The notes: a model not told the origin generated them from the sequence alone. Counted from the first letter of the stretch, positions 2,961-57,309 are shown. The stretch: DNA of 64,000 nt from Lachnospiraceae bacterium (GCA_045657625.1 JAZOTM010000003.1:5574-69573), one strand, 5' to 3'. Made by a program: numbers and translations.

Positions 2961-3142
2961 AAAAAGAGCATAGAGAACCTCTTTCCTTGGAATGGCATAG
3001 CTGTTCCGGGAAAGGGGTTTTTTAATTTTTTGTGAATAATAGTTTCTGAGGGATGACGTTTTTAGGGAAATATTTATAATGGAAATTAGAAGTATTTTTT
3101 GAAAATACGTATTAGGGAAGGTTACAAAGGAGGAGTGCATAG

Positions 3143-5575
3143 ATGGAGTTGTTGGAGTACGAAAAAGAACATTTGATTCGACTTCGCAAAGGCTTAGGGG
3201 AATGCATGGTTTTACTGAAAAAAGATGGAGAGTTTCCAATTGAGAAGCCTTGTAAAGTGGCTTTGTATGGAAATGGTGCCCGGGAGACTGTGAAAGGGGG
3301 GACAGGATCCGGCGAGGTAAATTCCCGTTACTTTGTAAACGTGGAAAAGGGTTTGGAGAAATCCGGTTTTACCATCACCACCACCAAATGGTTAGATGCA
3401 TATGATGAACAGCGAAAGCTTTTTCGCAAGAACTATATAGCCAAAGTAAAAAAAGAAGCAAAAGAGGCAAAGCAAAATCCGATTATGGTCTTGATGGGGA
3501 TGACCATTCCGGAAATGGAATATGAGATTCCGTTGGATGGAGAAGGAGAAATTGCACTCTATGTGCTTGCCAGAAATTCCGGAGAGGGCAACGACAGAAA
3601 ACCGGAAAAAGGGGATGTGAAATTAACCGATACTGAAGTGCGAGACATTTTGGTCCTCAATCAAAAATATCAAAAGTTTATGTTGTTATTGAATGTAGGG
3701 GGCGTTGTGGATTTAAGCCCTGTGCAGGATGTAAAAAACATTTTGATTTTGTCCCAGTTGGGAGTAGAGACCGGATTCGCATTGGCGGATGTGCTTTTGG
3801 GAAAACAGAATCCATCCGGTAAATTGACTACGACCTGGAGTGCCTATGAGGATTATGCGGAAATCGGTGAATTTGGACAACGAGATGAAACGCGTTATAA
3901 GGAAGGCGTTTATGTAGGGTATCGCTATTTCGATAAAATGGGAAAAAAGGCCTTGTTTCCTTTTGGATATGGACTTTCTTTCACGGAATTCAAGGTTTCT
4001 GAGGAAAAGGTGCATGTAACGGGAACGGAAATTACAGTTTCTGCCACGGTAAAAAATATTGGAAAACACAAAGGCAAGCAGGTTTTACAATTGTATGTCA
4101 GCCCACCACAGGGAAAACTGGATAAGCCATATCAGACCTTGGTGGGATTTAAAAAAACCGGTGTGTTAAAAACCCAGGAAGCGGAGACCATTACCATTTC
4201 CTTTGATTTACGAGATGCAGCTTCCTATGATGAAAAGAGAGCTTTGTACTATCTGGAAGAAGGCGACTATGTCCTTCGTCTAGGTGTATCCAGCATGGAT
4301 ACAAAGCCGGTGGCTCTTTGCAAATTGGAAAAGGAGTTGTCGGTACGACAGGTACAAAATCTGTTGGGTTCCCCGGATTTCCGGGATTTCAAACCTCAGG
4401 TGGAAGAAACAAAAGAAGCCTTGGCAGAAGTACCCTTGTATTTTGTGGATACCAAGGATTACAAAGTGGAAGAGGTTTCCTATGAGACCCAAGATGTCAT
4501 TGAAGACATGGTAAAGAAATTGACTACGGAAGAATTGGCAGCCTTAAATATAGGGTCTTTTAAAACCAAGAGTGGAATTCAAAGTGTAATCGGACAGGCC
4601 AGTGATAAACTTGCAGGGGCAGCAGGAGAAACCTCTTCTGTCGCTGTCAGTCGAGGCATTCAGACTTTGGTCATGGCGGATGGACCGGCAGGTATTCGTA
4701 TCGCAAAGGATTACTATATTGATTCCAAGGGCGCAGCTAAGTCCGTAGGAAATGGCATGATTGAAAGCATGGAAGAGTTTTTCTCTCCGGCAGCCAGGTT
4801 GGTGGTAAAGATGGTAACGGGGTCTGCCAGAAGAGTGACAGAGAACGTAAAACATCATTATGCCACGGCACTTCCCATTGGAACGGCCATTGCTCAAAGT
4901 TTTAATCTGAACTTTGCAGAAACCTGTGGTGATATTGTAGGGGATGAAATGGAACGCTTTGGGGTACATTTGTGGTTGGCCCCGGCGTTGAATATTCATC
5001 GTAATATTTTATGTGGTCGCAATTTTGAATATTATTCTGAGGATCCTTATGTGTCCGGAAAGGTTGCTGCAGCCATTACAAGAGGTGTGCAGAAACACAA
5101 GAATTGTGGGACTACCATCAAACACTTTGCAGCCAATAATCAGGAGTATTGCCGTTATATGAATAACAGTCAGGTATCTGAGCGAGCAATGCGTGAAATC
5201 TACTTAAAGGGCTTTGAAATCTGTGTGAAGGAATCGCAGCCCAAGGCTTTGATGACTTCCTACAACTTGTTGAATGGAACACATACTTCTGAAATGCATG
5301 GACTCAACCAGGATATTTTACGATGCGAATGGGGGTTTCGTGGGATTGTGATGACCGACTGGGTAATCAGTGGCATGGAAGAGAAAAACGCAAAATATGG
5401 AGCACCGGTTCCATATAAGGTGGCCGCATCCGGAAACGATTTATTTATGCCCGGGCACAAGAAAAATTACGAAGATTTGATGCAAGCGGTACAGAACGGT
5501 GACATCAGTAAGCGGGAATTGCAACGCAATGCTTCTCGCATCTATAGACTGACAAAAGAACTAAATCAAGGCTAA
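3143..5575 (+). CDS. Glycoside hydrolase family 3 (beta-glucosidase-like), permuted domain order
   Basis: C-terminal half carries barrel-domain motifs (KHFAANNQE, GFRGIVMTDW with the nucleophile Asp). N-terminal half carries sandwich-domain motifs (SGEGNDR, PSGKLTTTW, YRYFD, FPFGYGLSFTEF) plus an Fn3-like segment. Confidence 0.85.
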   Translation: MELLEYEKEHLIRLRKGLGECMVLLKKDGEFPIEKPCKVALYGNGARETVKGGTGSGEVNSRYFVNVEKGLEKSGFTITTTKWLDAYDEQRKLFRKNYIAKVKKEAKEAKQNPIMVLMGMTIPEMEYEIPLDGEGEIALYVLARNSGEGNDRKPEKGDVKLTDTEVRDILVLNQKYQKFMLLLNVGGVVDLSPVQDVKNILILSQLGVETGFALADVLLGKQNPSGKLTTTWSAYEDYAEIGEFGQRDETRYKEGVYVGYRYFDKMGKKALFPFGYGLSFTEFKVSEEKVHVTGTEITVSATVKNIGKHKGKQVLQLYVSPPQGKLDKPYQTLVGFKKTGVLKTQEAETITISFDLRDAASYDEKRALYYLEEGDYVLRLGVSSMDTKPVALCKLEKELSVRQVQNLLGSPDFRDFKPQVEETKEALAEVPLYFVDTKDYKVEEVSYETQDVIEDMVKKLTTEELAALNIGSFKTKSGIQSVIGQASDKLAGAAGETSSVAVSRGIQTLVMADGPAGIRIAKDYYIDSKGAAKSVGNGMIESMEEFFSPAARLVVKMVTGSARRVTENVKHHYATALPIGTAIAQSFNLNFAETCGDIVGDEMERFGVHLWLAPALNIHRNILCGRNFEYYSEDPYVSGKVAAAITRGVQKHKNCGTTIKHFAANNQEYCRYMNNSQVSERAMREIYLKGFEICVKESQPKALMTSYNLLNGTHTSEMHGLNQDILRCEWGFRGIVMTDWVISGMEEKNAKYGAPVPYKVAASGNDLFMPGHKKNYEDLMQAVQNGDISKRELQRNASRIYRLTKELNQG

Positions 5576-5746: not shown

Positions 5747-7240
5747 ATGGCATCGGTAGTAAAGAACGTTTCTCATGCAGCAGAACGTCAGGTATTTAGT
5801 GTTGCAATTGAGAAATTTTTAAAGTCGGTCAAGAATCAGGAAGGTGACCGTACAGAAACATATTTGAAGTTGGTGGATGCTGCCGGAAAGTTCTGGGGAA
5901 AGAATGTAAAGCCGGAGTCTTTAGAAAGCGTAAAGAAAGCAATTCAGGATCCGGACAATCGTTGGGTGAAATTTATCAATCGTGTCATTGATGAAACACA
6001 TCCAAACGTAGCAAAAATGGCCTTGTTGAATTTAGGATACGAAGCCTTTTTCCGTGGAACAAAAACCATTCGTGAAAATAGAGAAAAATACGGTTGTAAT
6101 ATTCCTTGGTTAATTCTTTTTGACCCAACCAGTGCCTGTAATATGCACTGTGCAGGATGCTGGTCCGGCACATATGGTCATAAGAGCAATTTGTCCTTCG
6201 AAGATATGGACAAGATTGTAACCCAGGGTAAAGAACTTGGTGTTTACCTTTATATGTTAACCGGTGGAGAACCATTGGTACGTAAGAAAGACGTTCTTCG
6301 TTTGGCTGAAAAGCACAACGATGTAGAATTTTCTATTTTTGATAACTCTACTTTGATTGACGAAGAATTCTGCCAGGAAGTAGTACGTTTAGGAAACATT
6401 ACCTTCCAGTTATCCATCGAAGGAACTCCGGATACCAACGATGCACGTCGTGGAATCGGACATTATGATGCAGTTATGAATGCCATGGATTTATTCCAGA
6501 AATACGGAATTATTTTTGGTACATCAATCTGCTACACAAGACAGAATATCGAAGCAGTTACTGATGAGAAATTCATCCGTATGATCGCGGATAAGGGAGC
6601 AAGATTTGGATTTTTCTTCCACTATATGCCGGTTGGAAACAATGCCGTTCCGGAATTAATGCCAACAGTAGAACAGCGTGAAAAGATGATTCAGACCATT
6701 CGTGATTTGCGTTCTGATAAATGTGATATTGGATTCTTCCCAATGGATTTCCAAAATGATGGAGAGTACGTTGGTGGATGTATTGCCGGAGGTAGAAACT
6801 ACTTCCACATCAATTCAAACGGAGATGCAGAACCATGTGTATTCATTCACTTCTCCAATACAAACATCCATGAGAACTCTATTTTGGAAATGTTACAGAG
6901 CCCATTATTCATGGCTTACCATGAAGGACAGCCATTCAACCGTAACCACTTAAGACCATGCCCAATGTTGGAAAACCCACAGTTATTAAGAGAAATGGTT
7001 GAAAAGACAGGCGCTCACGGAACCAACGAAGAATCCGAAGAGACCGTAGAACACTTATGTGCAAAATGCGATAATTATGCGGCTGAGTGGGGGCCGGTGG
7101 CTGATCGTGTCTGGGCAAGCCAAAACCACAAGAGACCAAAATACGAGAATTATACAAAAGAAAAGAGAGAACATCCGGAACTCGCAGCTTTCGAGCATGC
7201 AGTAGACTTTGTTGCATCCGAAGAAACAGTTATGGGCTAG
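5747..7240 (+). CDS. Radical SAM enzyme with C-terminal auxiliary Cys-rich (SPASM/twitch-like) region
   Basis: CNMHCAGCW (CxxxCxxC) about 130 aa in. Later GGCIAGGRNYFHINSNGDAEPCVF and LRPCP. Strong SD AAGGAGGA. Confidence 0.8.
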   Translation: MASVVKNVSHAAERQVFSVAIEKFLKSVKNQEGDRTETYLKLVDAAGKFWGKNVKPESLESVKKAIQDPDNRWVKFINRVIDETHPNVAKMALLNLGYEAFFRGTKTIRENREKYGCNIPWLILFDPTSACNMHCAGCWSGTYGHKSNLSFEDMDKIVTQGKELGVYLYMLTGGEPLVRKKDVLRLAEKHNDVEFSIFDNSTLIDEEFCQEVVRLGNITFQLSIEGTPDTNDARRGIGHYDAVMNAMDLFQKYGIIFGTSICYTRQNIEAVTDEKFIRMIADKGARFGFFFHYMPVGNNAVPELMPTVEQREKMIQTIRDLRSDKCDIGFFPMDFQNDGEYVGGCIAGGRNYFHINSNGDAEPCVFIHFSNTNIHENSILEMLQSPLFMAYHEGQPFNRNHLRPCPMLENPQLLREMVEKTGAHGTNEESEETVEHLCAKCDNYAAEWGPVADRVWASQNHKRPKYENYTKEKREHPELAAFEHAVDFVASEETVMG

Positions 7241-7327: not shown

Positions 7328-7392
7328 TACGTCAGAAATACTTTTTGAACGATTTAGCGTCAGCGACTAGTGAAAAAAGTTTTTCTGACGTA
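7328..7392 (+). repeat. 65-bp hairpin repeat, family 1, copy 1
   Basis: TACGTCAGAAATACTTTTT-[26-nt loop GAACGATTTAGCGTCAGCGACTAGTG]-AAAAAAGTTTTTCTGACGTA. Nearly identical to copies at 9038 and 19029, in the same orientation. Confidence 0.9.
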
Positions 7393-7468
7393 TTTTGATT
7401 TACGCAGGTGAGAAAAAATAATTATAATAAATGAGAGAGTAATTACATTACATTGGAGGACGGAATTT

Positions 7469-8317
7469 ATGAAAAATGAAAAAGTTTTAAATGGAATACT
7501 GGTTGTGTTAATAGCGGTCTGTGTAGCATGCTGTTCATGTTTTGTTGGGGCAAATAAGGTTCAATCATTTGAATGGGTACAAAATGCGGTAGTGCAATTG
7601 GAAGACAGCCAAGATACAATTATGAGATTTTCAGAGGCGACGTTGGCCATTTCACTTGTACTTGTTTTATTACCTGGGGATGCGGGAGAAAGTCAAATGA
7701 AGGTTTTATCTTATATGGAAGTGTTCTTTATCGCAATGTTGGGAATCATTTTCTTTGAACAATTGCTGGCAATAGAAGGAGGGTATATAGCTTTGCGATT
7801 TTTGATTCCTATAGCCGCTATATTTTTTGTCCTTTTTTGGTTTACGAGAAATGAAAGAGTGAAGAGAATAACGGTGAAGTTGATAGTTATAGCAGTGGCT
7901 TTGATAGCATTAGTTCCAGTGGGTATTAATATGTCAGATTCCATGTGTAGTAATTATTTGGCGTATGTGGAAGAAACAATTGATGAAGCGGAGTTTGGAG
8001 CAGAACAGGTTAATGATATGGTTGAGAATTCTTCTAATGAAGATGCGAGCTTTTTAGATAAAATATCGGAGGCATTTCAAACTGCGGTGAATGGAGTAGA
8101 GGAGTTTGTTGATTATATAAACAGTCTTATTAAAAAATGTATGAATGCAGTGGCTGTATTGCTTATTACAGTTTTTCTTGCTCCATTATTTATTTTTATT
8201 CTTTTGGTTTGGGGCACGGCTCAATTAGTTGGCTTGACTATGGATACAGTTCAAGGCGCTGCAAGTAAACTGATTGAAAGAGAGCATAGAAAAGAGGATC
8301 GAATCGATGAAAAATAA
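7469..8317 (+). CDS. Polytopic membrane protein, unknown function
   Basis: 5-6 hydrophobic helices, with an acidic helical segment (YVEETIDEAEFGAEQVNDMVENSSNED...) before the last TM. SD GGAGGA upstream. Confidence 0.65.
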   Translation: MKNEKVLNGILVVLIAVCVACCSCFVGANKVQSFEWVQNAVVQLEDSQDTIMRFSEATLAISLVLVLLPGDAGESQMKVLSYMEVFFIAMLGIIFFEQLLAIEGGYIALRFLIPIAAIFFVLFWFTRNERVKRITVKLIVIAVALIALVPVGINMSDSMCSNYLAYVEETIDEAEFGAEQVNDMVENSSNEDASFLDKISEAFQTAVNGVEEFVDYINSLIKKCMNAVAVLLITVFLAPLFIFILLVWGTAQLVGLTMDTVQGAASKLIEREHRKEDRIDEK

Positions 8318-8993
8318 GCATTTTTTTTGTTACGGTATTATATATTTTCTATTGATTGCGGGATGTATTGTATCTGTATATTATGGTAAAAATCTTTCGA
8401 AAGAGAATGTAACATATGAAGATGGGGTAGAAAGTATAGATGCAAATACGATTGTGCTTTTAAATAGTGGGGCAGAAGTGACTTTTTCGGAAGTAATCCT
8501 ATCACAACCGCAAGAAACTAGAAAATTGGTTGTTTTTGAACAAGAGGCAGAAGTTAGCTTTACCATAAAAAAATCCAGATTGCTTAAATGGAATGCCTTA
8601 TCTCAAAGCCAGAATATTACATACAAAGCAAAAGGGCAGTTTGTTGTAGATTTGGATTCTTTGACAGAAGAGAACATTATAGATAATTCGGATGAGAATA
8701 TACTTACAATAAAAATTGAACATCCGTATTTGGATGCGATTGTGGTTGACCCAGATAAAATAAGTTTAGAAGATACAGAGAATGGGATTCTTTCTTTTGG
8801 AGATTTAGTGCTTCCTGTAGATGATTTTGTTGAAATTGAAAAAGAATTACAAGACAGGTTAGAGGCTGAATTGGATACCTCCGCCAATGGACAAGCAGCA
8901 GATGATATAGCCATTGAAATGGTGACAGCGATTTATGAACCGGTGGTGAAGGCCGTGGATAAGGACTACACCTTGGTGGTGGAATTTCAATGA
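8307..8993 (+). CDS. N-terminally anchored protein, DUF4230-like appearance
   Basis: Likely start is ATG 8307 (SD AAGAGGA), overlapping the upstream stop by 11 nt. Has an N-terminal TM (FFCYGIIYFLLIAGCIVSVYY) then a mixed beta/alpha domain. The DUF4230 assignment is from memory of the family's shape and is not verified. Confidence 0.55.
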   Translation: MKNKHFFCYGIIYFLLIAGCIVSVYYGKNLSKENVTYEDGVESIDANTIVLLNSGAEVTFSEVILSQPQETRKLVVFEQEAEVSFTIKKSRLLKWNALSQSQNITYKAKGQFVVDLDSLTEENIIDNSDENILTIKIEHPYLDAIVVDPDKISLEDTENGILSFGDLVLPVDDFVEIEKELQDRLEAELDTSANGQAADDIAIEMVTAIYEPVVKAVDKDYTLVVEFQ

Positions 8994-9037
8994 TACAAAA
9001 ATTTGATAGAATTTTTGATGGTCATAGTGTAAATTCA

Positions 9038-9101
9038 TACGTCAGAAATACTTTTTGAACGATTTGCGTCAGCGACTTGTGAAAAAAGTTTTTCTGACGT
9101 A
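9038..9101 (+). repeat. 65-bp hairpin repeat, family 1, copy 2
   Basis: Same sequence as 7328..7392 apart from a 1-nt deletion and one substitution in the loop (GATTTGCGTCAGCGACTTGTG). Confidence 0.9.
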
Positions 9102-9241
9102 TAGTTATATACCCCATGTGAAAGGCATTTTTGGCGGATTCTTTTTATAATTGTTTTAGTGGGTTGAAATAGAAAAAAATAATTTCGTGTGATAAACTAA
9201 AAAAGGATTTGTGTTTAATACATAGGTGTTGGGAGAGAAAG

Positions 9242-9988
9242 ATGTTAGCTAGTTTAAAAATGGAAATCGTGGGGGAAGACATTTCATATAAAAAAGCTTC
9301 TAGTTTTCAAGGAGTTTTGTTCGAAAAGATAGAATCTGGATATGCGGAGTTTCTGCATAATCAACAGATGCATCCTTATAGTCAGTACTTGTGTAAAGAA
9401 CAAGATAAAGTGTATTGGTACATTAATACTTTAGACAAGGATGCATATCAAAATATTATTCAAACTCTTAAGAGTCAAAGTTTTCAATCCTTTTATTTAA
9501 AACATGGGAATACAGAAGTTCAGATTATATCTAAAGAAGAGAAGAATTATTCATATGAAGCATTATTGGCTGATTTTTATAAAAAAAAAGCCGATAGAAA
9601 TCTTTCTATTTCACTGAAGTCAGTTACTTCTTTTAAACAAAGAGGGAGATATAATGTAGTACCTGATCTGAGATTGATTTATCAGAATTTGATGATGCGT
9701 TATAGTGCTGTCGCTGGCAATGAAAACATGATAGATGCGGATGCATTGGAGGAATTAGTTGATGAGTCTATGATAACTCGGTATCGATTAAAAACTGCGA
9801 CGTTTCCGATGGAAGGCCGTATGATTCCGGGTTATATAGGAGACTTGACGATTCATATTAATGGAACGGAAACAATGGCTAGATACGCTAGAATGTTATT
9901 TCAATTTGGAGAATATTCGGGAGTTGGCATAAAAACGGCAATGGGTATGGGTGCACTAGAATTACGGGAGGAAAAAAATGCAAGATAA
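9242..9988 (+). CDS. cas6: Cas6 CRISPR repeat endoribonuclease
   Basis: First gene of the cas operon. C-terminal glycine-rich loop GVGIKTAMGMGAL is typical of Cas6. Preferred start is ATG 9242 (SD GGGAGAGAAAG). Confidence 0.8.
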   Translation: MLASLKMEIVGEDISYKKASSFQGVLFEKIESGYAEFLHNQQMHPYSQYLCKEQDKVYWYINTLDKDAYQNIIQTLKSQSFQSFYLKHGNTEVQIISKEEKNYSYEALLADFYKKKADRNLSISLKSVTSFKQRGRYNVVPDLRLIYQNLMMRYSAVAGNENMIDADALEELVDESMITRYRLKTATFPMEGRMIPGYIGDLTIHINGTETMARYARMLFQFGEYSGVGIKTAMGMGALELREEKNAR

Positions 9989-12341
9989 ATATTTGGAACT
10001 AACAATTGGCGCATTGTTGCATGATATAGGAAAAGTTATTTATCGAGAAGAAAAAGAAAAAAAGACACATAGTCAAAGTGGATATGAGTTTTTAAAAGAA
10101 AAGACTAGTTTGAATAATACGAATATATTAGATTCAATTCGGTATCATCATGCAGGTGCATTAAAAGGAGCTAAGATAGAGGATGATTCTGTAGCTTATA
10201 TAGTTTATATGGCAGATAATATTGCCTCCTCCGTGGATCGAAGAAATAAAATGGAGGATGAAAAAGGTTTTGAAATCCATGTTCCATTACAACCGGTATT
10301 TAATTTGTTAAATGGAAATCGTGGGAATACGTATTATGATCCCTATAAGTTTAATGTGGAGAATGCGATTAATTATCCGGTAGATGAAAAGAAGCTATTT
10401 GCAAAAGAGCAATACACTTCAATTATGCGAAATATAGAGGAAAATTTACGGGGAATAGAATTGTCTTCTAATTATGTGAATTCCTTGCTAGAAATATTAG
10501 AGGCAAATCTTTCTTATGTACCTTCTTCTACATCGAATGCAGAGGTTCCGGATATTTCGTTATATGATCACGTGAAGATTACAGCAGCTTTTGCGTGCAC
10601 TATGATGCAAAAACTAGAAGAACAGCAAATAAATAATTATAAAGATGTTTTGTTTCAAAACTCAGAGACCTATTATGACGAAAAGAATTTTTTGATAGCA
10701 TCTATAGATTTTTCTGGAATTCAAAAATTTATCTATACCATCCAAACGAAGAATGCGTTGCGTAATTTAAGAGCGCGATCCTTTTATTTGGAAATTATGA
10801 TGGAACATATGATAGATGAACTCTTGGAAAAATTAGGTTTATCCAGATGTAATTTGTTGTATTCCGGTGGTGGGCATTGTTATTTGCTTTTGTCTAATAC
10901 CGATGAATGTAAAAAAAGAATTGATGAATATATCGAAAAGACAAATGAATGGTTATTAGATAAATTTCAGGTGGAATTATTCGTGGCGGGAGGATATACG
11001 GAGTGTTCTGCTAATGAATTAAAAAATATACCTAATGGAAGTTATGAAGAAATCTTTCGAAGCTTATCAAGAAGTCTTTCTTATAAAAAACTACATCGTT
11101 ATACTCCGCAAATGTTACGAATATTAAATAATTCTACGGAAGATGATTATTCCAAAGAATGTGGTGTATGTAAACGTGTAGCAAAAATAGATGAAAATGG
11201 TCTTTGTCCTTTGTGTGCAGCTATAGAAAAGATGTCTGCAAATGTCTTGTATTCTGATTTTTTCACGGTGTGCGTAGGAGAAACAAAAGACAAACTTCCT
11301 TTGCCTGGAAATTATAGCTTGATTTGGGATACAAAAGAAAGCTTGACAAATAGAATGAAAAATGATGAGAAGTTTGTACGTGTATATAGTAAGAATAAAT
11401 CTTATACAGGACAACAAGTTGCTACAAAAATTTGGGTAGGAAATTATACGACTAAGTCTTCTTTTGAGGAATTTGCAGAAAGTGCGCAGGGAATTAATCG
11501 AATAGGAATTTTGAGAGCGGATGTGGACAATTTAGGACAAGCCTTTGTTTCTGGTTTTACAAATAAAGAGAATCAAAATCGGTATGTCACTATATCCAGA
11601 ACAGCTACGTTATCTAGACAATTATCTTTGTTTTTTAAACTGCATATCAATAAGATATTAGAAAATCCTGAATATACATTGGATGGAAGAAAACCGGAGA
11701 AAAGAAATATTACCATTGTATACTCAGGTGGAGATGACATCTTTGTTGTGGGGGCTTGGAATGAGGTGATTGAATTCTCTGTGGATTTAAGAAATGCGTT
11801 GAAAAAGTATACAGAGGATACATTACATATTTCAGCAGGTATTGGAATATATGAAAATAGTTATCCAATCAGTGCAAGTGCAATAGAGGTAGAAAACCAG
11901 GTAGATGCATCGAAAGATAATGACGGAAAAGATTCTGTTACATTGTTGGAAGATGGAGAAAAGCATAAAGGTAGCGATAATGATAAGTTTATTAGTGATG
12001 GAACGTATCATTGGGATGAATTCGTTGATGAGGTAATAAAAGAAAAATATCAATTGATTCAATTCTATATGAAAAAGAGTGAGAACATACATGGAAATGC
12101 GCTACTGTACAGATTGTTGGAATTAATCCGGAATCAAAAGGAGCGTATAAATTTTGCGAGATTTATATATGTTTTAGCCAGATTAGAACCTGAAGATAAA
12201 ATGAATCAGGACTTAATGGAATCTTTTGAAGCTTTTTCAAGTAAAATGGCTCAGTGGATAAAGAATGAAAAGGACAGAAGACAATTAAAAACTGCAATTA
12301 CATTATATGTATATTTGAATCGAGGGGAGGAACACGAATGA
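9978..12341 (+). CDS. cas10: Cas10/Csm1, type III-A large subunit
   Basis: N-terminal HD (LLHDIGK; HD codons 10020..10025). Zn-finger CGVCK..x..CPLC. Cyclase motif YSGGDDIFVVGAW (GGDD 11727..11738). Confidence 0.95.
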   Translation: MQDKYLELTIGALLHDIGKVIYREEKEKKTHSQSGYEFLKEKTSLNNTNILDSIRYHHAGALKGAKIEDDSVAYIVYMADNIASSVDRRNKMEDEKGFEIHVPLQPVFNLLNGNRGNTYYDPYKFNVENAINYPVDEKKLFAKEQYTSIMRNIEENLRGIELSSNYVNSLLEILEANLSYVPSSTSNAEVPDISLYDHVKITAAFACTMMQKLEEQQINNYKDVLFQNSETYYDEKNFLIASIDFSGIQKFIYTIQTKNALRNLRARSFYLEIMMEHMIDELLEKLGLSRCNLLYSGGGHCYLLLSNTDECKKRIDEYIEKTNEWLLDKFQVELFVAGGYTECSANELKNIPNGSYEEIFRSLSRSLSYKKLHRYTPQMLRILNNSTEDDYSKECGVCKRVAKIDENGLCPLCAAIEKMSANVLYSDFFTVCVGETKDKLPLPGNYSLIWDTKESLTNRMKNDEKFVRVYSKNKSYTGQQVATKIWVGNYTTKSSFEEFAESAQGINRIGILRADVDNLGQAFVSGFTNKENQNRYVTISRTATLSRQLSLFFKLHINKILENPEYTLDGRKPEKRNITIVYSGGDDIFVVGAWNEVIEFSVDLRNALKKYTEDTLHISAGIGIYENSYPISASAIEVENQVDASKDNDGKDSVTLLEDGEKHKGSDNDKFISDGTYHWDEFVDEVIKEKYQLIQFYMKKSENIHGNALLYRLLELIRNQKERINFARFIYVLARLEPEDKMNQDLMESFEAFSSKMAQWIKNEKDRRQLKTAITLYVYLNRGEEHE

Positions 12342-12730
12342 AATTTATAAGTGAACAAACATATGTTGATGATGCTGAGAAGGTAATTCTGAAGCTGTCG
12401 AATAAGACAGATCAACGGGGAAGAAAAGTAGAGATGGTTTCTACATCAAAAATCAGAAATATACTTTCCATGACTGCAGATATTTATAATAATGTATTAG
12501 TTTTGCAGGATGATAGTTTGACAGACGAATTGAATGGACGTATTTCTTATTTAAGAATGAGAATTATTTATGATTGCGGAAGAGAGCCTAAAGTAAAAGA
12601 TTTTATTACAGAGGCTAAAATACTAGAAGCGCTGAAAGAAATAAACGGAAGTAAAGCAAATTATATTTTATTTAATCATTACATGGAAGCGTTGATTGCC
12701 TTTCATAAATTTTATGATGGTAGAGATTAG
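12338..12730 (+). CDS. csm2: Csm2 small subunit
   Basis: 130-aa helical protein between cas10 and csm3, with start overlapping the cas10 stop. Called by position and size. Confidence 0.75.
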   Translation: MKFISEQTYVDDAEKVILKLSNKTDQRGRKVEMVSTSKIRNILSMTADIYNNVLVLQDDSLTDELNGRISYLRMRIIYDCGREPKVKDFITEAKILEALKEINGSKANYILFNHYMEALIAFHKFYDGRD

Positions 12731-12742
12731 GGGGATTCGATT

Positions 12743-13399
12743 ATGTATGGAAAAATTCAGATAACAGGTACTTTAGAAGTGGTAACCGGCATGCATATTG
12801 GAGGTTCTACGGCTTTCGCAGCGATTGGAGCTGTGGATGCACCTATTGTGAGGGATGTAAGAACAAATTTACCAATGATTCCGGGTAGTTCAATAAAAGG
12901 AAAGATGAGAACTCTTTTATCAAAAGAGTTCAATGAAATGTTAGTGGAACCGAACGATGATTGTGATAGAATTGCAAGATTGTTTGGAACAGCAAAAAAA
13001 GGAAATGTAAAAAGAAGTCGGTTGCTTTTTACTGACATGGTGCTAGATAACGAAGAAGAATTGCGAAAGCTAGGTCTTCAAAGTATGACGGAAGTAAAGT
13101 TTGAAAATACGATTAATCGTAAGACAGCAGTTGCAAATCCTAGACAAATTGAACGTGCAGTACGAGGTTCTTTGTTTGCATTAGATATTATGTATGAAGC
13201 AGAAGTAGAAGAGGAAATATTTGAAGATATGCAAACTTTTTGTGAAGGGCTGAAATTACTTCAATATGATTATTTAGGAGGAAATGGATCTAGAGGATAC
13301 GGAAAAGTGAGATTTTCTGATTTGTATGCAGATGTTGTCGTAGGAAATGTAGAAGATGACATTATGGAACGGTGTAATATGATGTTAAACGAATTCTAA
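12743..13399 (+). CDS. csm3: Csm3 (Cas7-type RAMP backbone subunit)
   Basis: GMHIGG, AVDAPIVRD, IPGSSIKGKMRTL and GGNGSRGYG motifs. Confidence 0.9.
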   Translation: MYGKIQITGTLEVVTGMHIGGSTAFAAIGAVDAPIVRDVRTNLPMIPGSSIKGKMRTLLSKEFNEMLVEPNDDCDRIARLFGTAKKGNVKRSRLLFTDMVLDNEEELRKLGLQSMTEVKFENTINRKTAVANPRQIERAVRGSLFALDIMYEAEVEEEIFEDMQTFCEGLKLLQYDYLGGNGSRGYGKVRFSDLYADVVVGNVEDDIMERCNMMLNEF

Positions 13400-13416
13400 G
13401 TATTTGGAGAATAAAG

Positions 13417-14340
13417 ATGAATTATGGAATATATAAACTTCGATTTCCTTATGGGGTACATTTTGGAAATCGTATGTTAGAAAACTGTAATATCCGTTTT
13501 TGTGCAGATACCTTGTTTTCAGCACTTTGTGTGGAGGCATTAAAAAACAGTAATGAGGAGCTGTTAAATAAGTTTGTAGATCAAACAAGAAAAGGAAATT
13601 TATTATTTTCTGATGCTTTTCCATATGTAGGTGAAGAATATCTTTTGCCGAAACCATATATTCAAATAGTAGGAAAAGAACAGGATTCCGCACAAAAGAA
13701 AAAATATAAGAAGTTGAATTATGTAGCACTTTCTCAGTGGCAACAATATGCTTCCGGAAATTTAGACCTAAGTATTCAAGAACAATTGGAAAAAAACATA
13801 GGGGATTTTTCTATGAGGACATATGCAGCAGTTCGTGGTTTGGAAGAAACTCTTCCTTATCGGGTAAGTTCTTTTTCCTTTTCTGAAGGTGCCGGTTTGT
13901 ATTTGGTATATGGATATGAAAATGATGAGGATGCTGATTTGTTTTATGAGTTACTGGAAAAATTATCGTTTACCGGAATAGGTGGAAAAAAATCTTCGGG
14001 TTATGGGCGGTTTGAAATATACAATGGAAAAATGCCGAAGGAATTTCAAGATAGTTTGGTAAATGAGGCAGAGAAGTATGTTTCGTTATCGGTATGTTTA
14101 CCGAAAGAAGATGAGTTAGAAGCTGTAATGGAATCGTCAACCTATAGTATTGAAAAACGAAGTGGATTTATAGATTCTACTCGGTATGCTTCGTCCATGA
14201 TGAGAAAAAAGGATATTTTCTTGTTTTCATCTGGTTCGACGTTTGCTTCGAAATTTGAAGGAGATATATATGATGTTTCTTCAGGTGGGAACCATCCGGT
14301 ATATAAATACGCAAAACCATTTTTTATGGGGGTATTGTGA
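13417..14340 (+). CDS. csm4: Csm4 (Cas5-type RAMP)
   Basis: GIGGKKSSGYGRF glycine loop. Position after csm3. Confidence 0.85.
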   Translation: MNYGIYKLRFPYGVHFGNRMLENCNIRFCADTLFSALCVEALKNSNEELLNKFVDQTRKGNLLFSDAFPYVGEEYLLPKPYIQIVGKEQDSAQKKKYKKLNYVALSQWQQYASGNLDLSIQEQLEKNIGDFSMRTYAAVRGLEETLPYRVSSFSFSEGAGLYLVYGYENDEDADLFYELLEKLSFTGIGGKKSSGYGRFEIYNGKMPKEFQDSLVNEAEKYVSLSVCLPKEDELEAVMESSTYSIEKRSGFIDSTRYASSMMRKKDIFLFSSGSTFASKFEGDIYDVSSGGNHPVYKYAKPFFMGVL

Positions 14341-15449
14341 TGCATGACTATTTAAAAGAGTATCAAATTGCATTAAAGACGGTAGGACCGGTATTTATTG
14401 GTTCTGGGAAGACCTTGTCAAAAAAAGAATATATTCTTACAAATAAAGATATTATTGTTATGGATGTTGCAAAATTATATACATTAGCATTAAATGCGAT
14501 ACAAAAGAAATCTTTTGAAGAATACTACTTACAAAGAAAAGCCAATGGTTTAGGCGATTGGCTAAAGCAAAATAAGGTATCACAAGAATTAAGTAATAAA
14601 TGTGTGAATTACCGTATGAAATATGCAGACTCATCTTTAGACAGAGGTACATCTATTGATGTTGTTGAGTTTATGAGGGATGCGTATGGCTTACCATTTG
14701 TTCCGGGAAGCTCTATAAAGGGGATGCTGCGCACGATTTTTTTATCTTATGAAATGAAGCAAAATGAAAAGAAGTTTAATTCATTCAAAGAAAAAATAAA
14801 TAGCCAATTATATGGAAATAGCAATCGTGTGAATAGAAATTCCTTTTTGAGACAAGAGCAGAAACAAATGGAGGCGGAAGCATTTTGTAAATTAAATCGT
14901 TCAGAGAAAAAAATGGATGCTGTGAACGACATACTTTCTGGTTTGATTGTAAGCGATTCTGCTCCAATAGATATAGGTGATATGATTCTTTGTCAACGTC
15001 TAGAATATCATGTTGATGGAGAGGAAAAGAACTTAAATGTATTAAGAGAATGTATTAAACCAGGTAAAGAAATTCGGTTCAGTATCACAATAGATGAAAC
15101 GATATGCCCATATACAATAGATGAAATTGAGATTGCTATTCAAGAATTCAGTCATATCTATGATTCTGTTTTTAAAACAAAATTTCATGGTATATCTCCT
15201 AGCGCGGATAATACGGTTTATTTGGGCGGAGGAACGGGATTTGTGTCTAAGACGGATGTATATCCCTTACTAGGAGAAAAGGATGGATTAGATGCGATAG
15301 TAAGAATTTTTGAGCTAACAAAAGTGCCAAAGATGCATAAACATTACTTGGATAAGAAACAAAATGTTTCGCCGCATATTCTAAAGATGACGAAATATAA
15401 TGGAAGTCTTTACCATATGGGGGAGTGTCAATGGAATGTTATTTCTTAG
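14337..15449 (+). CDS. csm5: Csm5 (RAMP)
   Basis: VPGSSIKGMLRT and YLGGGTGF motifs. Start overlaps the csm4 stop (GTGATG). Confidence 0.85.
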   Translation: MMHDYLKEYQIALKTVGPVFIGSGKTLSKKEYILTNKDIIVMDVAKLYTLALNAIQKKSFEEYYLQRKANGLGDWLKQNKVSQELSNKCVNYRMKYADSSLDRGTSIDVVEFMRDAYGLPFVPGSSIKGMLRTIFLSYEMKQNEKKFNSFKEKINSQLYGNSNRVNRNSFLRQEQKQMEAEAFCKLNRSEKKMDAVNDILSGLIVSDSAPIDIGDMILCQRLEYHVDGEEKNLNVLRECIKPGKEIRFSITIDETICPYTIDEIEIAIQEFSHIYDSVFKTKFHGISPSADNTVYLGGGTGFVSKTDVYPLLGEKDGLDAIVRIFELTKVPKMHKHYLDKKQNVSPHILKMTKYNGSLYHMGECQWNVIS

Positions 15450-15597
15450 AAAAAAGATTGTTGTTTTGCCCCGAGGCTTATGCTTTGGGGCTTGACGAAG
15501 AAATAAATTCGATTGTGTACAGTAAAATGATGAGTTTATTGTTTTGCCCCGAAAAAATAGTTTGGGGGCTAGAAATACCTAGGCCTCCCAGGGACAG
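15450..15597 (+). promoter_or_regulatory. CRISPR leader containing two palindromic GTTTTGCCCCGA...GGGGCT units
   Basis: Lies between the csm5 stop and the first repeat. TTGTTTTGCCCCGA occurs at 15461 and 15539, each followed by a complementary TTTGGGG(G)C. Confidence 0.6.
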
Positions 15598-16255
15598 GAA
15601 TTGATATAGATACTCCGAAAGGAGACGGAAACTTTGGTACACCCATTAAATATAATGGAACTATTAATTGATATAGATACTCCGAAAGGAGACGGAAACT
15701 TTAAAAATTCTTTCCATTCGACACCTGATTCTTGGAAATTGATATAGATACTCCGAAAGGAGACGGAAACGTTTTTTTCGAATTAACCGAAAACACGTTT
15801 GCACGAATTGATATAGATACTCCGAAAGGAGACGGAAACGGTAACTATGAAACTGTTACCAAAGTTTACTGACAGAATTGATAGAGATACTCCGAAAGGA
15901 GACGGAAACCTTTAAAAAAACGGTCATTATATAATAATAAACGAATTGATAGAGATACTCCGAAAGGAGACGGAAACTAGTTTCAATAGTTGCATTGTTT
16001 ACAGTTACAGAATTGATAGAGATACTCCGAAAGGAGACGGAAACAGATTCATGGCATTCGCCTGCCCATTGCCACTGACGAATTGATAGAGATACTCCGA
16101 AAGGAGACGGAAACAAGGTTTGCAAAAGGTAAAGTTGCGGTTTCGGTGGAATTGATAGAGATACTCCGAAAGGAGACGGAAACTGTTAGTACGATAATGA
16201 TACCAACACAAGCCAGAAAGGAATTGATAGAGATACTCCGAAAGGAGACGGATTT
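15598..16255 (+). CRISPR. CRISPR array: 10 repeats (35 nt, last one degenerate), 9 spacers of 32-37 nt
   Basis: Repeat is GAATTGATA[T/G]AGATACTCCGAAAGGAGACGGAAAC. Repeat starts are 15598, 15665, 15736, 15805, 15875, 15943, 16010, 16080, 16149 and 16221. The 3' end ACGGAAAC fits a type III 8-nt crRNA tag, and the terminal repeat ends GGATTTG. Confidence 0.97.
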
Positions 16256-16332
16256 GAACGCATAATACAATTAAAATAGTTTTGGCGGTTTTGGAAAGTG
16301 ATTTTGCAAGAACTGAGAAAGGGGATGTAAAA

Positions 16333-17334
16333 ATGAGCCTAATATATGTGGCTGAAAACGGTGCAGTTGTGGGAGTGGAAAATAATCGCTTGACAATTAA
16401 ATACAAAGATGGTTTATTGCGAACGATTCCAATTGAAACGGTGGAAGGTATATCCATATTGGCAAAAGCACAACTGAGCACGGCATGCATGGAAACATGT
16501 ATGGAAAAGGGAATCCCGGTATCTTTTTATTCAAAAGGGGGAAGATATTTTGGACGTTTGATGTCCACGGGGCATATTCACACAGAGTTGCAAAGAAAGC
16601 AGGATTCCTTATATGAAACAGATTTTTCACTAGGTTTGGCAAGACGGATTATCGATTGCAAGATTTATAACCAGATAGTGGTATTGAAAAGGTATGCGCG
16701 CAATGATGAAAAAGATGTAGATGCGTTTGTAAGCAATATGCAAAATAGTAGAAAGAAATTAGAAATGGTGGATTCCATCGCAGAATTAATGGGATATGAG
16801 GGAATAGCGGCAAGAGCCTATTTTGAAGGATTGTCTATGTGTATAGATCAAGATTTTAAGTTTAAGGGTAGGAGTCGAAGACCTCCGATGGATGAGTTTA
16901 ATTCTATGATTAGTTTGGGTTACTCAATTTTGATGAACGAAATTTATGCGGAATTGGAAATGCAAGGATTAAATCCTTATTTTGGATTTGTTCATAAGGA
17001 TGCAGAGAAGCATCCTACATTGGCTAGCGATTTGATAGAGGAATGGAGAGCCGTCTTAATCGATTCATTGGTAATGAGCATGATAAACGGACATGAGGTA
17101 AATAAGGAAGATTTTATTCTTAATATGGATGAACCGGGGTGCTTTTTGACGAAGGAATGTATGAAAAAATATATTTCAAAGTTGGAAATTAAATTAAATA
17201 CAAAAACAAAATACTTGTCTTATATAGATTATCAAGTTACTTTTCGTAGAGCTATATCATTACAAATTGAAAGTTTGAGGGAAGCAATAGAAACAGCAGA
17301 TTATACGAAGTATAGTCCAATTAGAATTAGGTGA
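16333..17334 (+). CDS. cas1: Cas1 integrase
   Basis: MSLIYVAENG..., EGIAARAYFEG, NSMISLGYSIL. Preferred start is ATG 16333 (SD AAAGGGGA); the track ORF starts at TTG 16282. Confidence 0.9.
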   Translation: MSLIYVAENGAVVGVENNRLTIKYKDGLLRTIPIETVEGISILAKAQLSTACMETCMEKGIPVSFYSKGGRYFGRLMSTGHIHTELQRKQDSLYETDFSLGLARRIIDCKIYNQIVVLKRYARNDEKDVDAFVSNMQNSRKKLEMVDSIAELMGYEGIAARAYFEGLSMCIDQDFKFKGRSRRPPMDEFNSMISLGYSILMNEIYAELEMQGLNPYFGFVHKDAEKHPTLASDLIEEWRAVLIDSLVMSMINGHEVNKEDFILNMDEPGCFLTKECMKKYISKLEIKLNTKTKYLSYIDYQVTFRRAISLQIESLREAIETADYTKYSPIRIR

Positions 17335-17339
17335 TTGTT

Positions 17340-17660
17340 ATGGATAGAGAAGATTATTTTTTTGGAGAAATATCTGATAATAGGCGGAATAAGGTATACG
17401 CATTAGTAATATATGACATTGTAGAAAATACGAAGAGGACTAAGTTTGCAAGATTTCTTTCTGGCTATGGGAATCGTGTGCAAAAGTCAGCATTTGAAGT
17501 GAGCATAACAGAAAAAAAGTTTGATGAAATGCTAAGGAAAATTCCCAGTTTTTGTACAATGGAAGACAGCATTCGTGTATATCGGATTTCTGGAAAAAAT
17601 TTAGTTCATAAATGGGGAATCGATTATTTAGAAGAGCAGGAAGATATTATAATTATTTAG
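17340..17660 (+). CDS. cas2: Cas2
   Basis: VIYDIVENTKRTKFARFLSGYGNRVQKSAFE is the typical Cas2 ferredoxin-fold N-terminus. Overlaps the cas1 stop. The alternative start is GTG 17331. Confidence 0.9.
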   Translation: MDREDYFFGEISDNRRNKVYALVIYDIVENTKRTKFARFLSGYGNRVQKSAFEVSITEKKFDEMLRKIPSFCTMEDSIRVYRISGKNLVHKWGIDYLEEQEDIIII

Positions 17661-17669
17661 GAGCATGTG

Positions 17670-18989
17670 ATGGGAAAAACTATTTTATTTTCACCGGTAG
17701 GTGGAACGGATCCAATTTCGATGAACAATTATAGGGATGGTTCATTATTGCATATTTCGAGGGTATATAAGCCTGATGAAGTGTATTTATATATGTCTAA
17801 TGAAATCTTAAAGAATCATGAGGAAGATAATAGATATATTTATTGCTTGGAAAAACTGGCAGAAATGCAAGAAAGAAAAATGGCATATCATATTATCGAA
17901 AGAGAAGAATTGAAAAATGTGCAAGAATTTGATTTCTTTTACAGAGATTTTAAAGAAATTATAGGTAGTATTAGAAATGAGATAAGTGCAGATGATTGTC
18001 TATTAATAAATGTTTCATCTGGTACACCTGCAATGAAGAGTGGGTTACTTGTACTTGCAACATTAGGAGAGTATCCGTTACAGATGGTACAAGTTATAAC
18101 ACCGATGAAAAAAATGAATGAGCATAATCATAATGGGTATGATGTGGAACTGTTGTGGGAATTGAATGATGATAATACGGAGAAGTTTGAAAATCGTTGT
18201 GTTGAAGTAACCTGTCCATCGTTGTCGGTGATTAAACAAGAAGAAGTTATAAAAAAATTAATTACGGAATATGATTATAATGCGGCTATAACAGCAACAA
18301 AGAATTTGCCTTTGAGTACGACAGAGAATTATTTGGAGGTATTGGAAGCTGCCTATAGTAGAATGCAATTAAATTTTAGCAAAATGAACCCTTTGGTAAA
18401 AAAGTATGATATAAAAGGGTTTCCTGTTAAATCTACCGATACGCAAAAGTATTTTGAGTATATTTTATCTTTAGAAATAAAAAGAAGACGAGGGGAATAT
18501 GGAGACTTTATACGGGCAATATCGCCTATTATATTAGATTTATTTGTTTTTATACTACAACATGAGTGTAATGTAAATCTTGAGGATTTAACGTATTCCT
18601 TCGTAGACAAAGGTATGAAATGGGATGAAACAAAGCTGAGGGGGACAGAAGTTAAGAGAATATTAGACGCTAGGAAGAAAGATTATATTGGAAAACCGGT
18701 GTATTCTTCACAGTTAATAGATGTAATTCGCGAATTGGCAAATACAAATATTGATTTAGTAAATACTGTTTCTGCATTAAGAGATATAGAAGCAAATGTG
18801 CGTAATATTGCAGCGCATCAAATAGTATCAATAACAGAAGATAAGGTTAAGAAATTGACTGGTTATGCAACGGCAGATGTTGTGAAATTGTTACATAAGG
18901 CGTGTATATATGCAGGATTTAAGATTAAGGAAGAATATTGGAACGCATATGATGAAATGAATCTTGATATTTTATCAAGAATGCAGTGA
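17670..18989 (+). CDS. csm6: Csm6 (CARF + HEPN cOA-activated RNase)
   Basis: N-terminus ILFSPVGGTDP (CARF). C-terminal R-x4-H HEPN motif RNIAAH (18801..18818). Confidence 0.85.
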   Translation: MGKTILFSPVGGTDPISMNNYRDGSLLHISRVYKPDEVYLYMSNEILKNHEEDNRYIYCLEKLAEMQERKMAYHIIEREELKNVQEFDFFYRDFKEIIGSIRNEISADDCLLINVSSGTPAMKSGLLVLATLGEYPLQMVQVITPMKKMNEHNHNGYDVELLWELNDDNTEKFENRCVEVTCPSLSVIKQEEVIKKLITEYDYNAAITATKNLPLSTTENYLEVLEAAYSRMQLNFSKMNPLVKKYDIKGFPVKSTDTQKYFEYILSLEIKRRRGEYGDFIRAISPIILDLFVFILQHECNVNLEDLTYSFVDKGMKWDETKLRGTEVKRILDARKKDYIGKPVYSSQLIDVIRELANTNIDLVNTVSALRDIEANVRNIAAHQIVSITEDKVKKLTGYATADVVKLLHKACIYAGFKIKEEYWNAYDEMNLDILSRMQ

Positions 18990-19028
18990 TTTTTATGTCT
19001 GACATTTTGCTGCAATAACATAAATTGA

Positions 19029-19093
19029 TACGTCAGAAATACTTTTTGAACGATTTAGCGTTAGCGACTAGTGAAAAAAGTATTTCTGACGTA
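19029..19093 (+). repeat. 65-bp hairpin repeat, family 1, copy 3
   Basis: Same element and same orientation. In this copy the 20-bp stem pairs perfectly (arms ...GAAATAC... / ...GTATTTC...). Confidence 0.9.
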
Positions 19094-19197
19094 CACTCAC
19101 ATACCTTACGTGAAAAAAGCATTTCTAACTTTGACATTTAAAAGCCATATTATTAAAATAAATCTAAGGGGAAAAACAACATAGGAGAGGTTTTTAC

Positions 19198-20070
19198 ATG
19201 CATGAAAAAGAGGCTAAATCGATACTAACTCCCCAAAATGGAATGAATGTGTACAGAGGTTGTACCCAGGGTTGTATTTATTGTGATTCCAGAAGTGATT
19301 GTTATCGTTATGAGTATGACTTTGAAGATGTGGAAATCAAGAAAAACATGGCACAGTTGCTGGAGAAATCTTTGCGAAGCAAGAGACGGCGGTGTATGAT
19401 TGGCATTGGTTCCATGAGTGATCCTTATCAGGAGATTGAGAAATCAGAACAGCTGATGAGAAGTGCTTTGGAACTGATTCATTATTATGGTTATGGGGTG
19501 ACCATTGAGACGAAGTCGGATTTGATTCTCAGAGATTTGGACTTGCTTCAGGCAATTCATACCAAGGCAAAGGTGAATGTGATTGTTTCTTTGACGGCAA
19601 GGGAGGATGCGCTGGCGGCGAAGCTGGAACCCGGTTGCCCTGCTACTTCCAGACGTGTGGAAGTGTTAAAGAAGCTGAAGGCAGAGGGTATTTCCACATA
19701 TGTACATATGGCACCATTGATTCCGGGGATTAATGACTCTGTAGAAAATGTGCAGGGACTGTTGGACCTTTGCGGAGAAGCAAAGGTGGACGGAATTCTT
19801 TATTCCTTTTTAGGCGTGACTTTGCGAAAGGGAAGTAGACAGCATTTTTACAAGAAGTTAACGGAACAATTTCCCGGTATGTTGGAAGATTTTATGGAAC
19901 AGTATGGTGAAATCAATGAAATTCACGTGCCGGAGGAAAAGGAATTGCTGGGGATGATTAAGCAGTATTGTAAGGAACATAGCATTGTTTGCGATCAACA
20001 AAAATTGTTTACTTATTTACGTGCTTTTGAGGACAAGCTCAGCGCCCCTCAGATTCAATTCGAATTTTAA
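19198..20070 (+). CDS. Radical SAM protein, SPL/DNA-photolyase-like (COG1533-type)
   Basis: CTQGCIYC (CxxxCxxC) within the first 30 aa. The roughly 290-aa size is typical of this family. Confidence 0.75.
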   Translation: MHEKEAKSILTPQNGMNVYRGCTQGCIYCDSRSDCYRYEYDFEDVEIKKNMAQLLEKSLRSKRRRCMIGIGSMSDPYQEIEKSEQLMRSALELIHYYGYGVTIETKSDLILRDLDLLQAIHTKAKVNVIVSLTAREDALAAKLEPGCPATSRRVEVLKKLKAEGISTYVHMAPLIPGINDSVENVQGLLDLCGEAKVDGILYSFLGVTLRKGSRQHFYKKLTEQFPGMLEDFMEQYGEINEIHVPEEKELLGMIKQYCKEHSIVCDQQKLFTYLRAFEDKLSAPQIQFEF

Positions 20071-47833: not shown

Positions 47834-47846
47834 GGGAGATTTGAGA

Positions 47847-49142: not shown

Positions 49143-49153
49143 AAATTGTATTT

Positions 49154-49187
49154 GTGTGACTGCGGTGTGACTAAGTCAACTTATACT
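49154..49187 (+). promoter_or_regulatory. Heptamer-repeat promoter P1
   Basis: GTGTGAC (49154), N4, GTGTGAC (49165), N10, TATACT (49182). No TTGACA-like -35. Confidence 0.65.
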
Positions 49188-49229
49188 TTGAATGAAAATC
49201 CAAAAGTATATTTTGGGGAGGAGACTTTA

Positions 49230-49925: not shown

Positions 49926-49953
49926 TGGGACCGGAATGAGAGGAGAGACGAGG

Positions 49954-51700: not shown

Positions 51701-51806
51701 TTTATTAAACATCCGTTTTTTACTGGAAAAACGGATGTTTTTTTGTTACAAAAAAACTAATTATGATATAGTAGTAGGGGTTGAGAGAGAGAAACGGGGA
51801 GCATAA

Positions 51807-53003: not shown

Positions 53004-53012
53004 TTAGGAGAC

Positions 53013-53441: not shown

Positions 53442-53469
53442 AGGATGCTTTTTGGCATCCTTTTTTTTA
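53442..53469 (+). terminator. Intrinsic terminator
   Basis: AGGATGC-TTTTTG-GCATCCT followed by T8. Confidence 0.8.
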
Positions 53470-53478
53470 CTTTTTTCT

Positions 53479-53512
53479 GTGTGACCGACGTGTGACTTGA
53501 GATTGGTATAGT
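53479..53512 (+). promoter_or_regulatory. Heptamer-repeat promoter P2
   Basis: GTGTGAC (53479), N4, GTGTGAC (53490), N10, TATAGT (53507). Confidence 0.65.
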
Positions 53513-53589
53513 GGAACACATATAAAGGGAAGTTTGTGAAAGAGTTGTAATAACGAGTACCCTCGAGTTGGATGGAGGAAAAGAGGAAC

Positions 53590-57297: not shown

Positions 57298-57309
57298 GGG
57301 AGAGGGAAA

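Follow-up and report, generated by a model that had tools for sequence, protein, structure and literature searches.

The vehicles known for complete CRISPR-Cas loci are few, namely plasmids, the staphylococcal cassette chromosome mec (SCCmec), Vibrio islands and transposon-associated systems. The DNA considered here raises the question of whether there is a further one. In a stretch of 64,000 nucleotides from a Lachnospiraceae bacterium (GCA_045657625.1, JAZOTM010000003.1:5574-69573; hereafter the window), a minimal 9.9-kb type III-A CRISPR-Cas locus that carries no mobility gene shares a 65-nt hairpin site with an unrelated two-gene module, three copies of the hairpin marking out the two as consecutive cassettes. 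Our tentative answer, to which we give a probability of about 45%, is that non-autonomous cassettes have built up here in tandem, using the hairpin as their attachment (att) site and a recombinase whose gene lies elsewhere. Should recombination indeed take place at the hairpin, defence systems of gut or rumen Clostridia would have in it a compact cassette format that is mobilised in trans, and the locus would point to a recombinase still to be identified. If it is instead a miniature inverted-repeat transposable element (MITE) or a passive repeat, the locus would be an ordinary, recently acquired defence islet.

The hairpin and its three copies

A first-pass annotation of the window had described three near-identical hairpins in the same orientation and had seen no other copy in the 64 kb. 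Both observations hold: a 28-nt hairpin probe, allowing up to 3 mismatches, matches exactly 3 sites in the 64 kb where 0.00 would be expected, direct reading of the sequence agrees with it on their positions (Table 1), and neither arm-only searches nor a covariance model of the hairpin, derived from its three copies, finds a further one in the window. The copies, for which TACGTCAGAAATACTTTTTGAACGATTTAGC can stand, are imperfect palindromes in a single orientation and are 94-97% identical to each other. Copies 1 and 3 differ at 2 positions, while copy 2 departs from copy 1 by one 1-nt deletion and one substitution, and three of these four differences lie in the loop and the fourth in an arm. 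The earlier description of the stem and loop also agrees well with what we find, which is a stem of 19 bp around a loop of 27 nt in copies 1 and 3 and of 26 nt in copy 2, with a weak inner stem within the loop. Copies 1 and 2 have a T.T mismatch at stem position 12, which the arm substitution in copy 3 converts to a pair, giving a perfect 19-bp stem, and the unit as a whole can be read as an imperfect palindrome with 31-nt arms. Folded as DNA the hairpin reaches -16 to -19.5 kcal/mol, both strands being equally good, and z-scores between -5 and -7 are obtained whichever strand is folded, with RNA and DNA alike. In copies 1 and 2 each unit has the motif CGTCAG in its left arm, again in its loop and a third time, inverted, in its right arm; the loop of copy 3 has CGTTAG instead. 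The termini are ATACGTC and GACGTAT, and each copy has the form TA/CGTCAG...CTGACG/TA. Similarity between the copies beyond the palindrome is marginal (P about 0.014-0.016), and thus it is the hairpin itself that is the conserved unit.

The placement of the copies is as regular as their sequence. Each lies just 3′ of the last gene before it, as had been noted in the first pass, at 87 nt from the stop codon of the radical SAM/SPASM gene on the left, 44 nt from that of the DUF4230 gene and 39 nt from that of csm6. The gene content likewise matches the earlier partition of the region into a 1.6-kb segment with two membrane genes and a 9.9-kb segment running from cas6 to csm6. There are 0 copies in the 52 kb of native flank and 3 in the 11.8 kb of the island, all of them at boundaries, which ties the element to the island whatever its copy number elsewhere may be. 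A solo sequence similar to the right arm, close to copy 3, is the seventh arm-like sequence found, compared to 0.02 such matches expected by chance in the whole window, and is either the remnant of another hairpin copy or an extra putative binding site. It abuts the -35 box of a downstream promoter-like site, and copies 1 and 2 are followed at an equal distance by weaker GTGA-A-rich sequences.

An insertion of foreign DNA

The first-pass annotation considered the enclosed DNA to be richer in AT than its surroundings, and this is borne out by windowed G+C and by the G+C of third codon positions (GC3), the cassettes being at 0.35 and 0.34 against 0.41 outside. More exactly, G+C is 0.351 in cassette 1 and 0.338 in cassette 2, compared to 0.42 and 0.409 in the two flanks, and windows as low as these are absent from the flanks both at the size of cassette 1 (0/490) and at that of cassette 2 (0/350). 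GC3 is 0.24-0.33 in every gene inside the island and 0.38-0.45 in the genes outside. The shift in G+C is sharp and coincides with the repeats.

A change of this kind could also be produced by an assembler that crossed a shared repeat of about 65 nt into another locus or organism and then back again. Composition does change exactly at repeats of roughly k-mer length, and the contig is one of 74 kb from an organism without close relatives in the collections, possibly a metagenome-assembled genome; the window proteins are nearly all singletons at 90% identity, and the collections therefore hold no conspecific genome. However, the path returns to precisely the neighbouring gene that relatives have in this position, the three junctions differ in sequence through the private substitutions of the copies, and defence islands that are richer in AT than their host are commonplace anyway. 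We consider a chimeric assembly very unlikely.

The arrangement in relatives provides the other line of evidence. We reached their contigs via the spermidine synthase encoded 2.7 kb downstream (a cluster of 29 members), and in 7/7 Lachnospiraceae-like contigs that cover the region, all from non-conspecific relatives (L012, L013, L016, L017, L018, L021 and L024), the two radical-SAM genes that flank the island are adjacent, 99-171 nt apart, and are followed by the same polyamine genes. The ancestral arrangement was thus one without the 11.8 kb, which makes the latter an insertion. This is the empty site that had been predicted in the first pass, except that the single hairpin copy expected in it is not seen in any of the seven contigs. 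The test is a weak one, since the relatives are distant: their G+C is 0.47-0.53, compared to 0.41 in the window, four neighbouring genes encode proteins that are 82-83%, 86-87%, 91-92% and 70-72% identical to those of the window, and no alignment of their intergenic DNA to the window is possible, so that a missing hairpin at these sites tells us little about the genome's immediate ancestor. The sequence around the copies shows no resemblance to the empty-site DNA of the relatives, a shared 9-mer (TTACGCAGG) not being significant. Composition and the empty site together support the view that the 11.8 kb between the radical-SAM genes are foreign DNA, acquired horizontally.

The native sequence on either side differs in its history. 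On the left, the radical SAM/SPASM gene shares 82-83% identity with its positional counterpart in relatives, and the terminator-like stem-loop that follows it (AAACCCCCTT...AAGGGGGTTT) is the last clearly native sequence; it goes uncalled by the terminator scan because its loop is 16 nt, and relatives have a different terminator in its place. On the right, the position and neighbours of the SPL/PA0069-type radical SAM gene, with a polyamine-synthesis cluster downstream, are as in relatives. Its product is 52-54% identical to their counterpart, compared to 82-92% for its neighbours, whereas the counterparts are 92-95% identical among the relatives themselves, and its other homologues are at most 57% identical and found in other contexts. 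This gene, host-like in its G+C of 0.42, may have been replaced or may have diverged fast, possibly in connection with the arrival of the island.

The hairpin as a proposed attachment site

Several features argue for reading the hairpin as an att site. It coincides with all three boundaries, the outer two of the foreign DNA and the one between the cassettes, and the copies share one orientation, as tandem att sites require (by our reckoning an element with symmetrical ends would show a shared orientation by chance in 1 of 4 cases). It is the palindrome itself that is conserved. The distance of 39-44 nt between the end of either cassette and its hairpin suggests a fixed layout, and the solo arm near copy 3 suggests that each arm is a discrete site and that the locus has seen more than a single event. 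Additionally, integrase-less islands that keep their att sites, and the tandem accretion of such islands, are documented (PMC5704250).

In the mechanism that we propose, a site-specific recombinase, with its gene at another place in the genome or on a helper element, would join the hairpin on a circular cassette with a hairpin in the chromosome. Two successive insertions, or a single insertion of a pair already stacked, would lead by tandem accretion to the order site-cassette-site-cassette-site. Recombination between two direct copies would then release cassette 1, cassette 2 or both as a circle and leave one hairpin behind, and this excision could be site-specific or could depend on RecA, across 65 bp and at low frequency. 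We infer all three elements of this mechanism, namely that the hairpins are recombination sites, that an enzyme acts on them in trans and that excision occurs. The first-pass annotation had proposed that the CRISPR-Cas system arrived, or can be lost, as a cassette by recombination between the repeats; of this, its acquisition as an insertion stands, on the empty site and the composition, while arrival or loss by way of the repeats is a conjecture drawn from a single genome.

A number of results count against an att site. No recombinase or transposase domain of Pfam is found in any open reading frame (ORF) examined in the 64 kb, in line with the earlier remark that no recombinase is visible in the window, and no characterised recombination core site matches a 19-bp inverted repeat with a 27-nt spacer. 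The differences between copies form no mosaic pattern that would place a crossover. The collections searched hold no second genome with the hairpin, so neither mobility nor a second type of cassette can be shown, and the hairpin-less empty sites of the distant relatives add to this, though not heavily. No tRNA gene was detected in the window.

Searches for the hairpin elsewhere

We scanned the GTDB species representatives (185,579 genomes), the JGI metagenomes and IMG/VR for the two arms separated by a free loop of 17-40 nt. The genomes and metagenomes gave 11 matches, all of them unrelated palindromes, and IMG/VR gave none; a further scan of IMG/VR with one arm and the start of the loop found no hairpin either. 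In plasmids and phages, blastn with the hairpin and its flanks returned chance matches of 21-33 nt only, one of which lies inside a phage transposase gene and not at an element end. No Rfam family matches anywhere in the window, and the covariance model finds no copy in about 260 kb of relatives' and homologues' loci, its sole hits beyond the three copies being ordinary terminators at position 43290 of the window and 8953 of locus L033. Long hairpins built on GTCAGAAA...TTTCTGAC are present in diverse metagenomes (loci L001-L011, with a nested or duplicated palindrome in L006 and L007). They are unrelated to ours, and the motif alone hence does not identify this element.

These searches bear on the possibility that the hairpins are intergenic repeats of a donor genome, of the repetitive extragenic palindromic (REP) or terminator type, which lie passively in one imported fragment of 11.8 kb that was integrated illegitimately, with stimulation by the hairpins, or through homology of its flanks. 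The copies lie shortly after operon ends, the usual place of REPs and terminators, the nearly equal G+C of the cassettes fits a single donor, and the divergence of the right flank gene (52-54%) could reflect replacement of the flank by homologous recombination. However, this explanation does not predict a repeat at exactly the two ends of the foreign DNA, and neither the species representatives nor the JGI metagenomes include a donor rich in the hairpin. Copy 1, moreover, comes after a native gene with a terminator-like stem-loop of its own. A run of T follows copy 1 only and the terminator scan flags no copy, which speaks against repeats of the terminator type in particular; an intrinsic terminator was rejected on the same observations, together with an AT-rich stem and a loop of 26-27 nt. 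As for REPs, the first pass had named a generic one as the finding that would undo its proposal, and none of the high copy number typical of them is seen, the hairpin being absent from the 52 kb of flank, the GTDB representatives and the JGI metagenomes, as well as from IMG/VR, plasmids and phages. All in all we hold passive donor repeats to be unlikely.

A similar weighing is needed for transposition. Here the hairpin would be a MITE with terminal inverted repeats of 17-19 bp (CGTCAGAAATACTTTTT), and its copies would bracket the cargo as a composite unit, moved by a transposase encoded elsewhere into a TA between the radical-SAM genes. Pairs of MITEs that mobilise the DNA between them are known, and the hairpin has the appearance of one, being small, non-coding and near-identical between copies, with 19-bp arms as terminal inverted repeats that end exactly at the ends of the 65-nt unit and with the same TA/CGTCAG...CTGACG/TA arrangement in every copy. 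The empty sites of relatives are without a hairpin, as such a model predicts. However, only TA is duplicated and, belonging to the palindrome itself, it cannot count as a target duplication; no longer one surrounds the single copies or the whole island. The three copies share one orientation, the window holds no transposase, and no full-length insertion sequence (IS) or other copy with these ends is found in plasmids, phages or IMG/VR; the genome and metagenome scans required both arms within 40 nt, and a full-length IS would escape them. Known MITE-bracketed units are also small non-coding elements with terminal inverted repeats around cargo that lacks a transposase, but their target-site duplications are clear, they occur in multiple copies per genome and their parent IS can be recognised, none of which is demonstrable here. 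Transposition as a MITE-bracketed unit thus seems to us somewhat unlikely.

Comparison with known systems

For an att site, the documented parallel is found in the cis-mobilisable elements (CIMEs), such as the islands related to ICESt1 and ICESt3 of Streptococcus thermophilus, which have no integration genes and keep flanking att repeats (PMC5704250). They share with our locus the order att-island-att-island-att in one orientation, and their mobility depends on a recombinase acting in trans (PMC5704250). However, in CIMEs the att sites consist of short direct repeats and lie at the 3′ end of the target gene, whereas here the site is a free-standing intergenic hairpin of 65 nt. CIMEs are decayed integrative and conjugative or integrative and mobilisable elements, with relatives that encode a known integrase, while no cognate recombinase or parent is known for the cassettes described here, which at 1.6 and 9.9 kb are also tiny by comparison.

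The form of the locus comes closest to that of an integron cassette array or of a cluster of attC sites lacking an integron-integrase (CALIN), including sedentary chromosomal integrons with their species-specific attC repeats, where promoter-poor cassettes are each followed by a near-identical, co-oriented palindrome. Defence genes are among the known cargo of integron cassettes (PMC12614218). The hairpin is nevertheless not an attC site as these are commonly defined (see PMC12614218): the core sites RYYYAAC and GTTRRRY, with their AAC/GTT triplet, are absent, the ends being ATACGTC and GACGTAT, and there are no extrahelical bases and no unpaired central spacer, the stem having 19 continuous bp with at most one T.T mismatch and no bulges. 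There is also no IntI, no attI and no tyrosine recombinase in the window, and integron cassettes are usually far smaller than the 9.9-kb multi-operon cassette. We know of no integrons in Firmicutes. One could still imagine the hairpin as a folded, single-strand-type recombination site of a cassette-capture system of Firmicutes that has yet to be described, similar to attC in function and unrelated to it in sequence, with its recombinase elsewhere and the whole 10-kb III-A locus as one cassette; we think this quite unlikely.

For the cargo, a parallel is SCCmec, which illustrates the principle for this very CRISPR subtype, a type III-A locus being reported to excise within it as a unit (PMC10434264). 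There, too, direct repeats bound a chromosomal cassette that holds a complete type III-A locus, and SCC elements can be stacked in tandem (PMC10434264). SCC elements differ in that they insert in rlmH (orfX), have short repeats at the integration site, encode Ccr serine recombinases and extend over tens of kb, none of which applies here. Another comparison is with islands that use Xer and dif-like sites (integrative mobile elements exploiting Xer, or IMEXs, the gonococcal genetic island and pdif modules), which also have no recombinase of their own, are bounded by palindromic sites and rely on a chromosomal enzyme. Service by the Xer recombinase of the host would explain why a recombinase is missing. 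Sites of the dif type are 28 bp long, with two 11-bp arms around a 6-bp spacer, and by eye no such layout is present in the hairpin or its flanks. Ends of the IS200/IS605 type were dropped, also by eye, as their layout does not match, and a role of the hairpin as promoter or terminator was rejected since the matches to consensus are not conserved among the copies. With a shift in composition, an empty site in relatives and repeats at both ends, and without an integrase, the locus is filed here as a direct-repeat-bounded genomic islet whose att-like site is an unusual, free-standing hairpin.

Gene content of the cassettes

The cas genes (Table 1) were called from matches to NCBIfam, Pfam and PADLOC above curated cut-offs, with NCBIfam equivalog models for Csm1-Csm5. 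The locus is of type III-A, having cas10/csm1 with csm2-csm5, cas6, csm6, cas1-cas2 and an array. The first four repeats of the array are a one-base variant, GATATAGATAC, and the later ones are GATAGAGATAC, with a degenerate repeat on the side of cas1. The degenerate repeat next to cas1 and the variant first repeats suggest a leader on the csm5 side. The nearest Csm6 homologue is 58% identical. None of the homologous III-A loci L027, L031, L036 and L037 (Csm6 52-58% identical) has flanking hairpins or direct repeats like these. One of them, L037, is a complete locus with its genes ordered as in cassette 2. The hairpin is thus a feature of the vehicle rather than of the CRISPR system. In cassette 1, a search of 5.8 billion proteins finds no homologue of the 282-aa membrane protein, which is also without a Pfam, significant NCBIfam or PADLOC match, and the DUF4230 protein matches no PADLOC model.

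Table 1. Positions in the window of the hairpin copies, the two cassettes with their genes, and the flanking features.
Feature	Position	Strand	Remarks
Left flank radical SAM/SPASM gene	5747..7240	+	497 aa; Pfam Radical_SAM and SPASM; G+C 0.413; native
GC-rich terminator-like stem-loop	7283..7318	+	After left flank gene; read from the sequence
Hairpin copy 1	7328..7392	+	65 nt; equal to consensus; covariance model 101.5 bits
Cassette 1	7393..9037	+	1.6 kb; between copies 1 and 2
Promoter-like site	7399-7428		Cassette 1
Multi-pass membrane protein	7469-8317	+	Cassette 1; 282 aa
DUF4230 protein	8307-8993	+	Cassette 1; longest ORF from 8274
Hairpin copy 2	9038..9101	+	64 nt; private 1-nt deletion in loop and private substitution; 96.5 bits
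Cassette 2	9102..19028	+	9.9 kb; between copies 2 and 3; complete type III-A CRISPR-Cas locus
cas6	9209-9988	+	Cassette 2
cas10/csm1	9978-12341	+	Cassette 2; Csm1 model 761 bits
csm2	12338-12730	+	Cassette 2
csm3	12743-13399	+	Cassette 2
csm4	13417-14340	+	Cassette 2
csm5	14337-15449	+	Cassette 2
CRISPR array	15598..16255	+	10 repeats of about 35 nt; between csm5 and cas1
cas1	16282-17334	+	Cassette 2
cas2	17331-17660	+	Cassette 2
csm6	17667-18989	+	Cassette 2; CARF-HEPN
Hairpin copy 3	19029..19093	+	65 nt; two private substitutions (one in loop, one in arm); 101 bits
Solo right-arm-like sequence	19110..19129	+	GTGAAAAAAGCATTTCTAAC; 18/20 identical to right arm; 17 nt downstream of copy 3
Strong promoter-like site for right flank gene	19131..19159	+	TTGACA, 17 nt, TAAAAT; 11/12 consensus positions; consensus match only
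Right flank SPL/PA0069-type radical SAM gene	19198..20070	+	290 aa; G+C 0.422; native

Other features of the region and its relatives

In two of the relatives (L012 and L013, positions 2580-5012), an IS1595-family transposase gene and an IS605 OrfB/TnpB gene lie just upstream of the left radical-SAM gene, which marks this neighbourhood as prone to insertion in the group. Relatives (L012-L026) also have a variable hotspot after a conserved HTH-hipA module, downstream of an arginase-family gene, and its content includes a restriction-modification pair (L016), a PIN/MazE toxin-antitoxin system (L012 and L013) and kinase/FHA or DUF87/colicin-DNase genes (L022 and L023). At the corresponding position the window has saccharopine dehydrogenase-like and decarboxylase genes instead. 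Further along, positions 47841-60628 hold a pilus- or adhesin-like locus, which opens with four consecutive ORFs without a Pfam match (47841-51700) and continues with a BTAD regulator, a 1241-aa protein with VWA and SpaA domains, three small ORFs without a match and a sortase.

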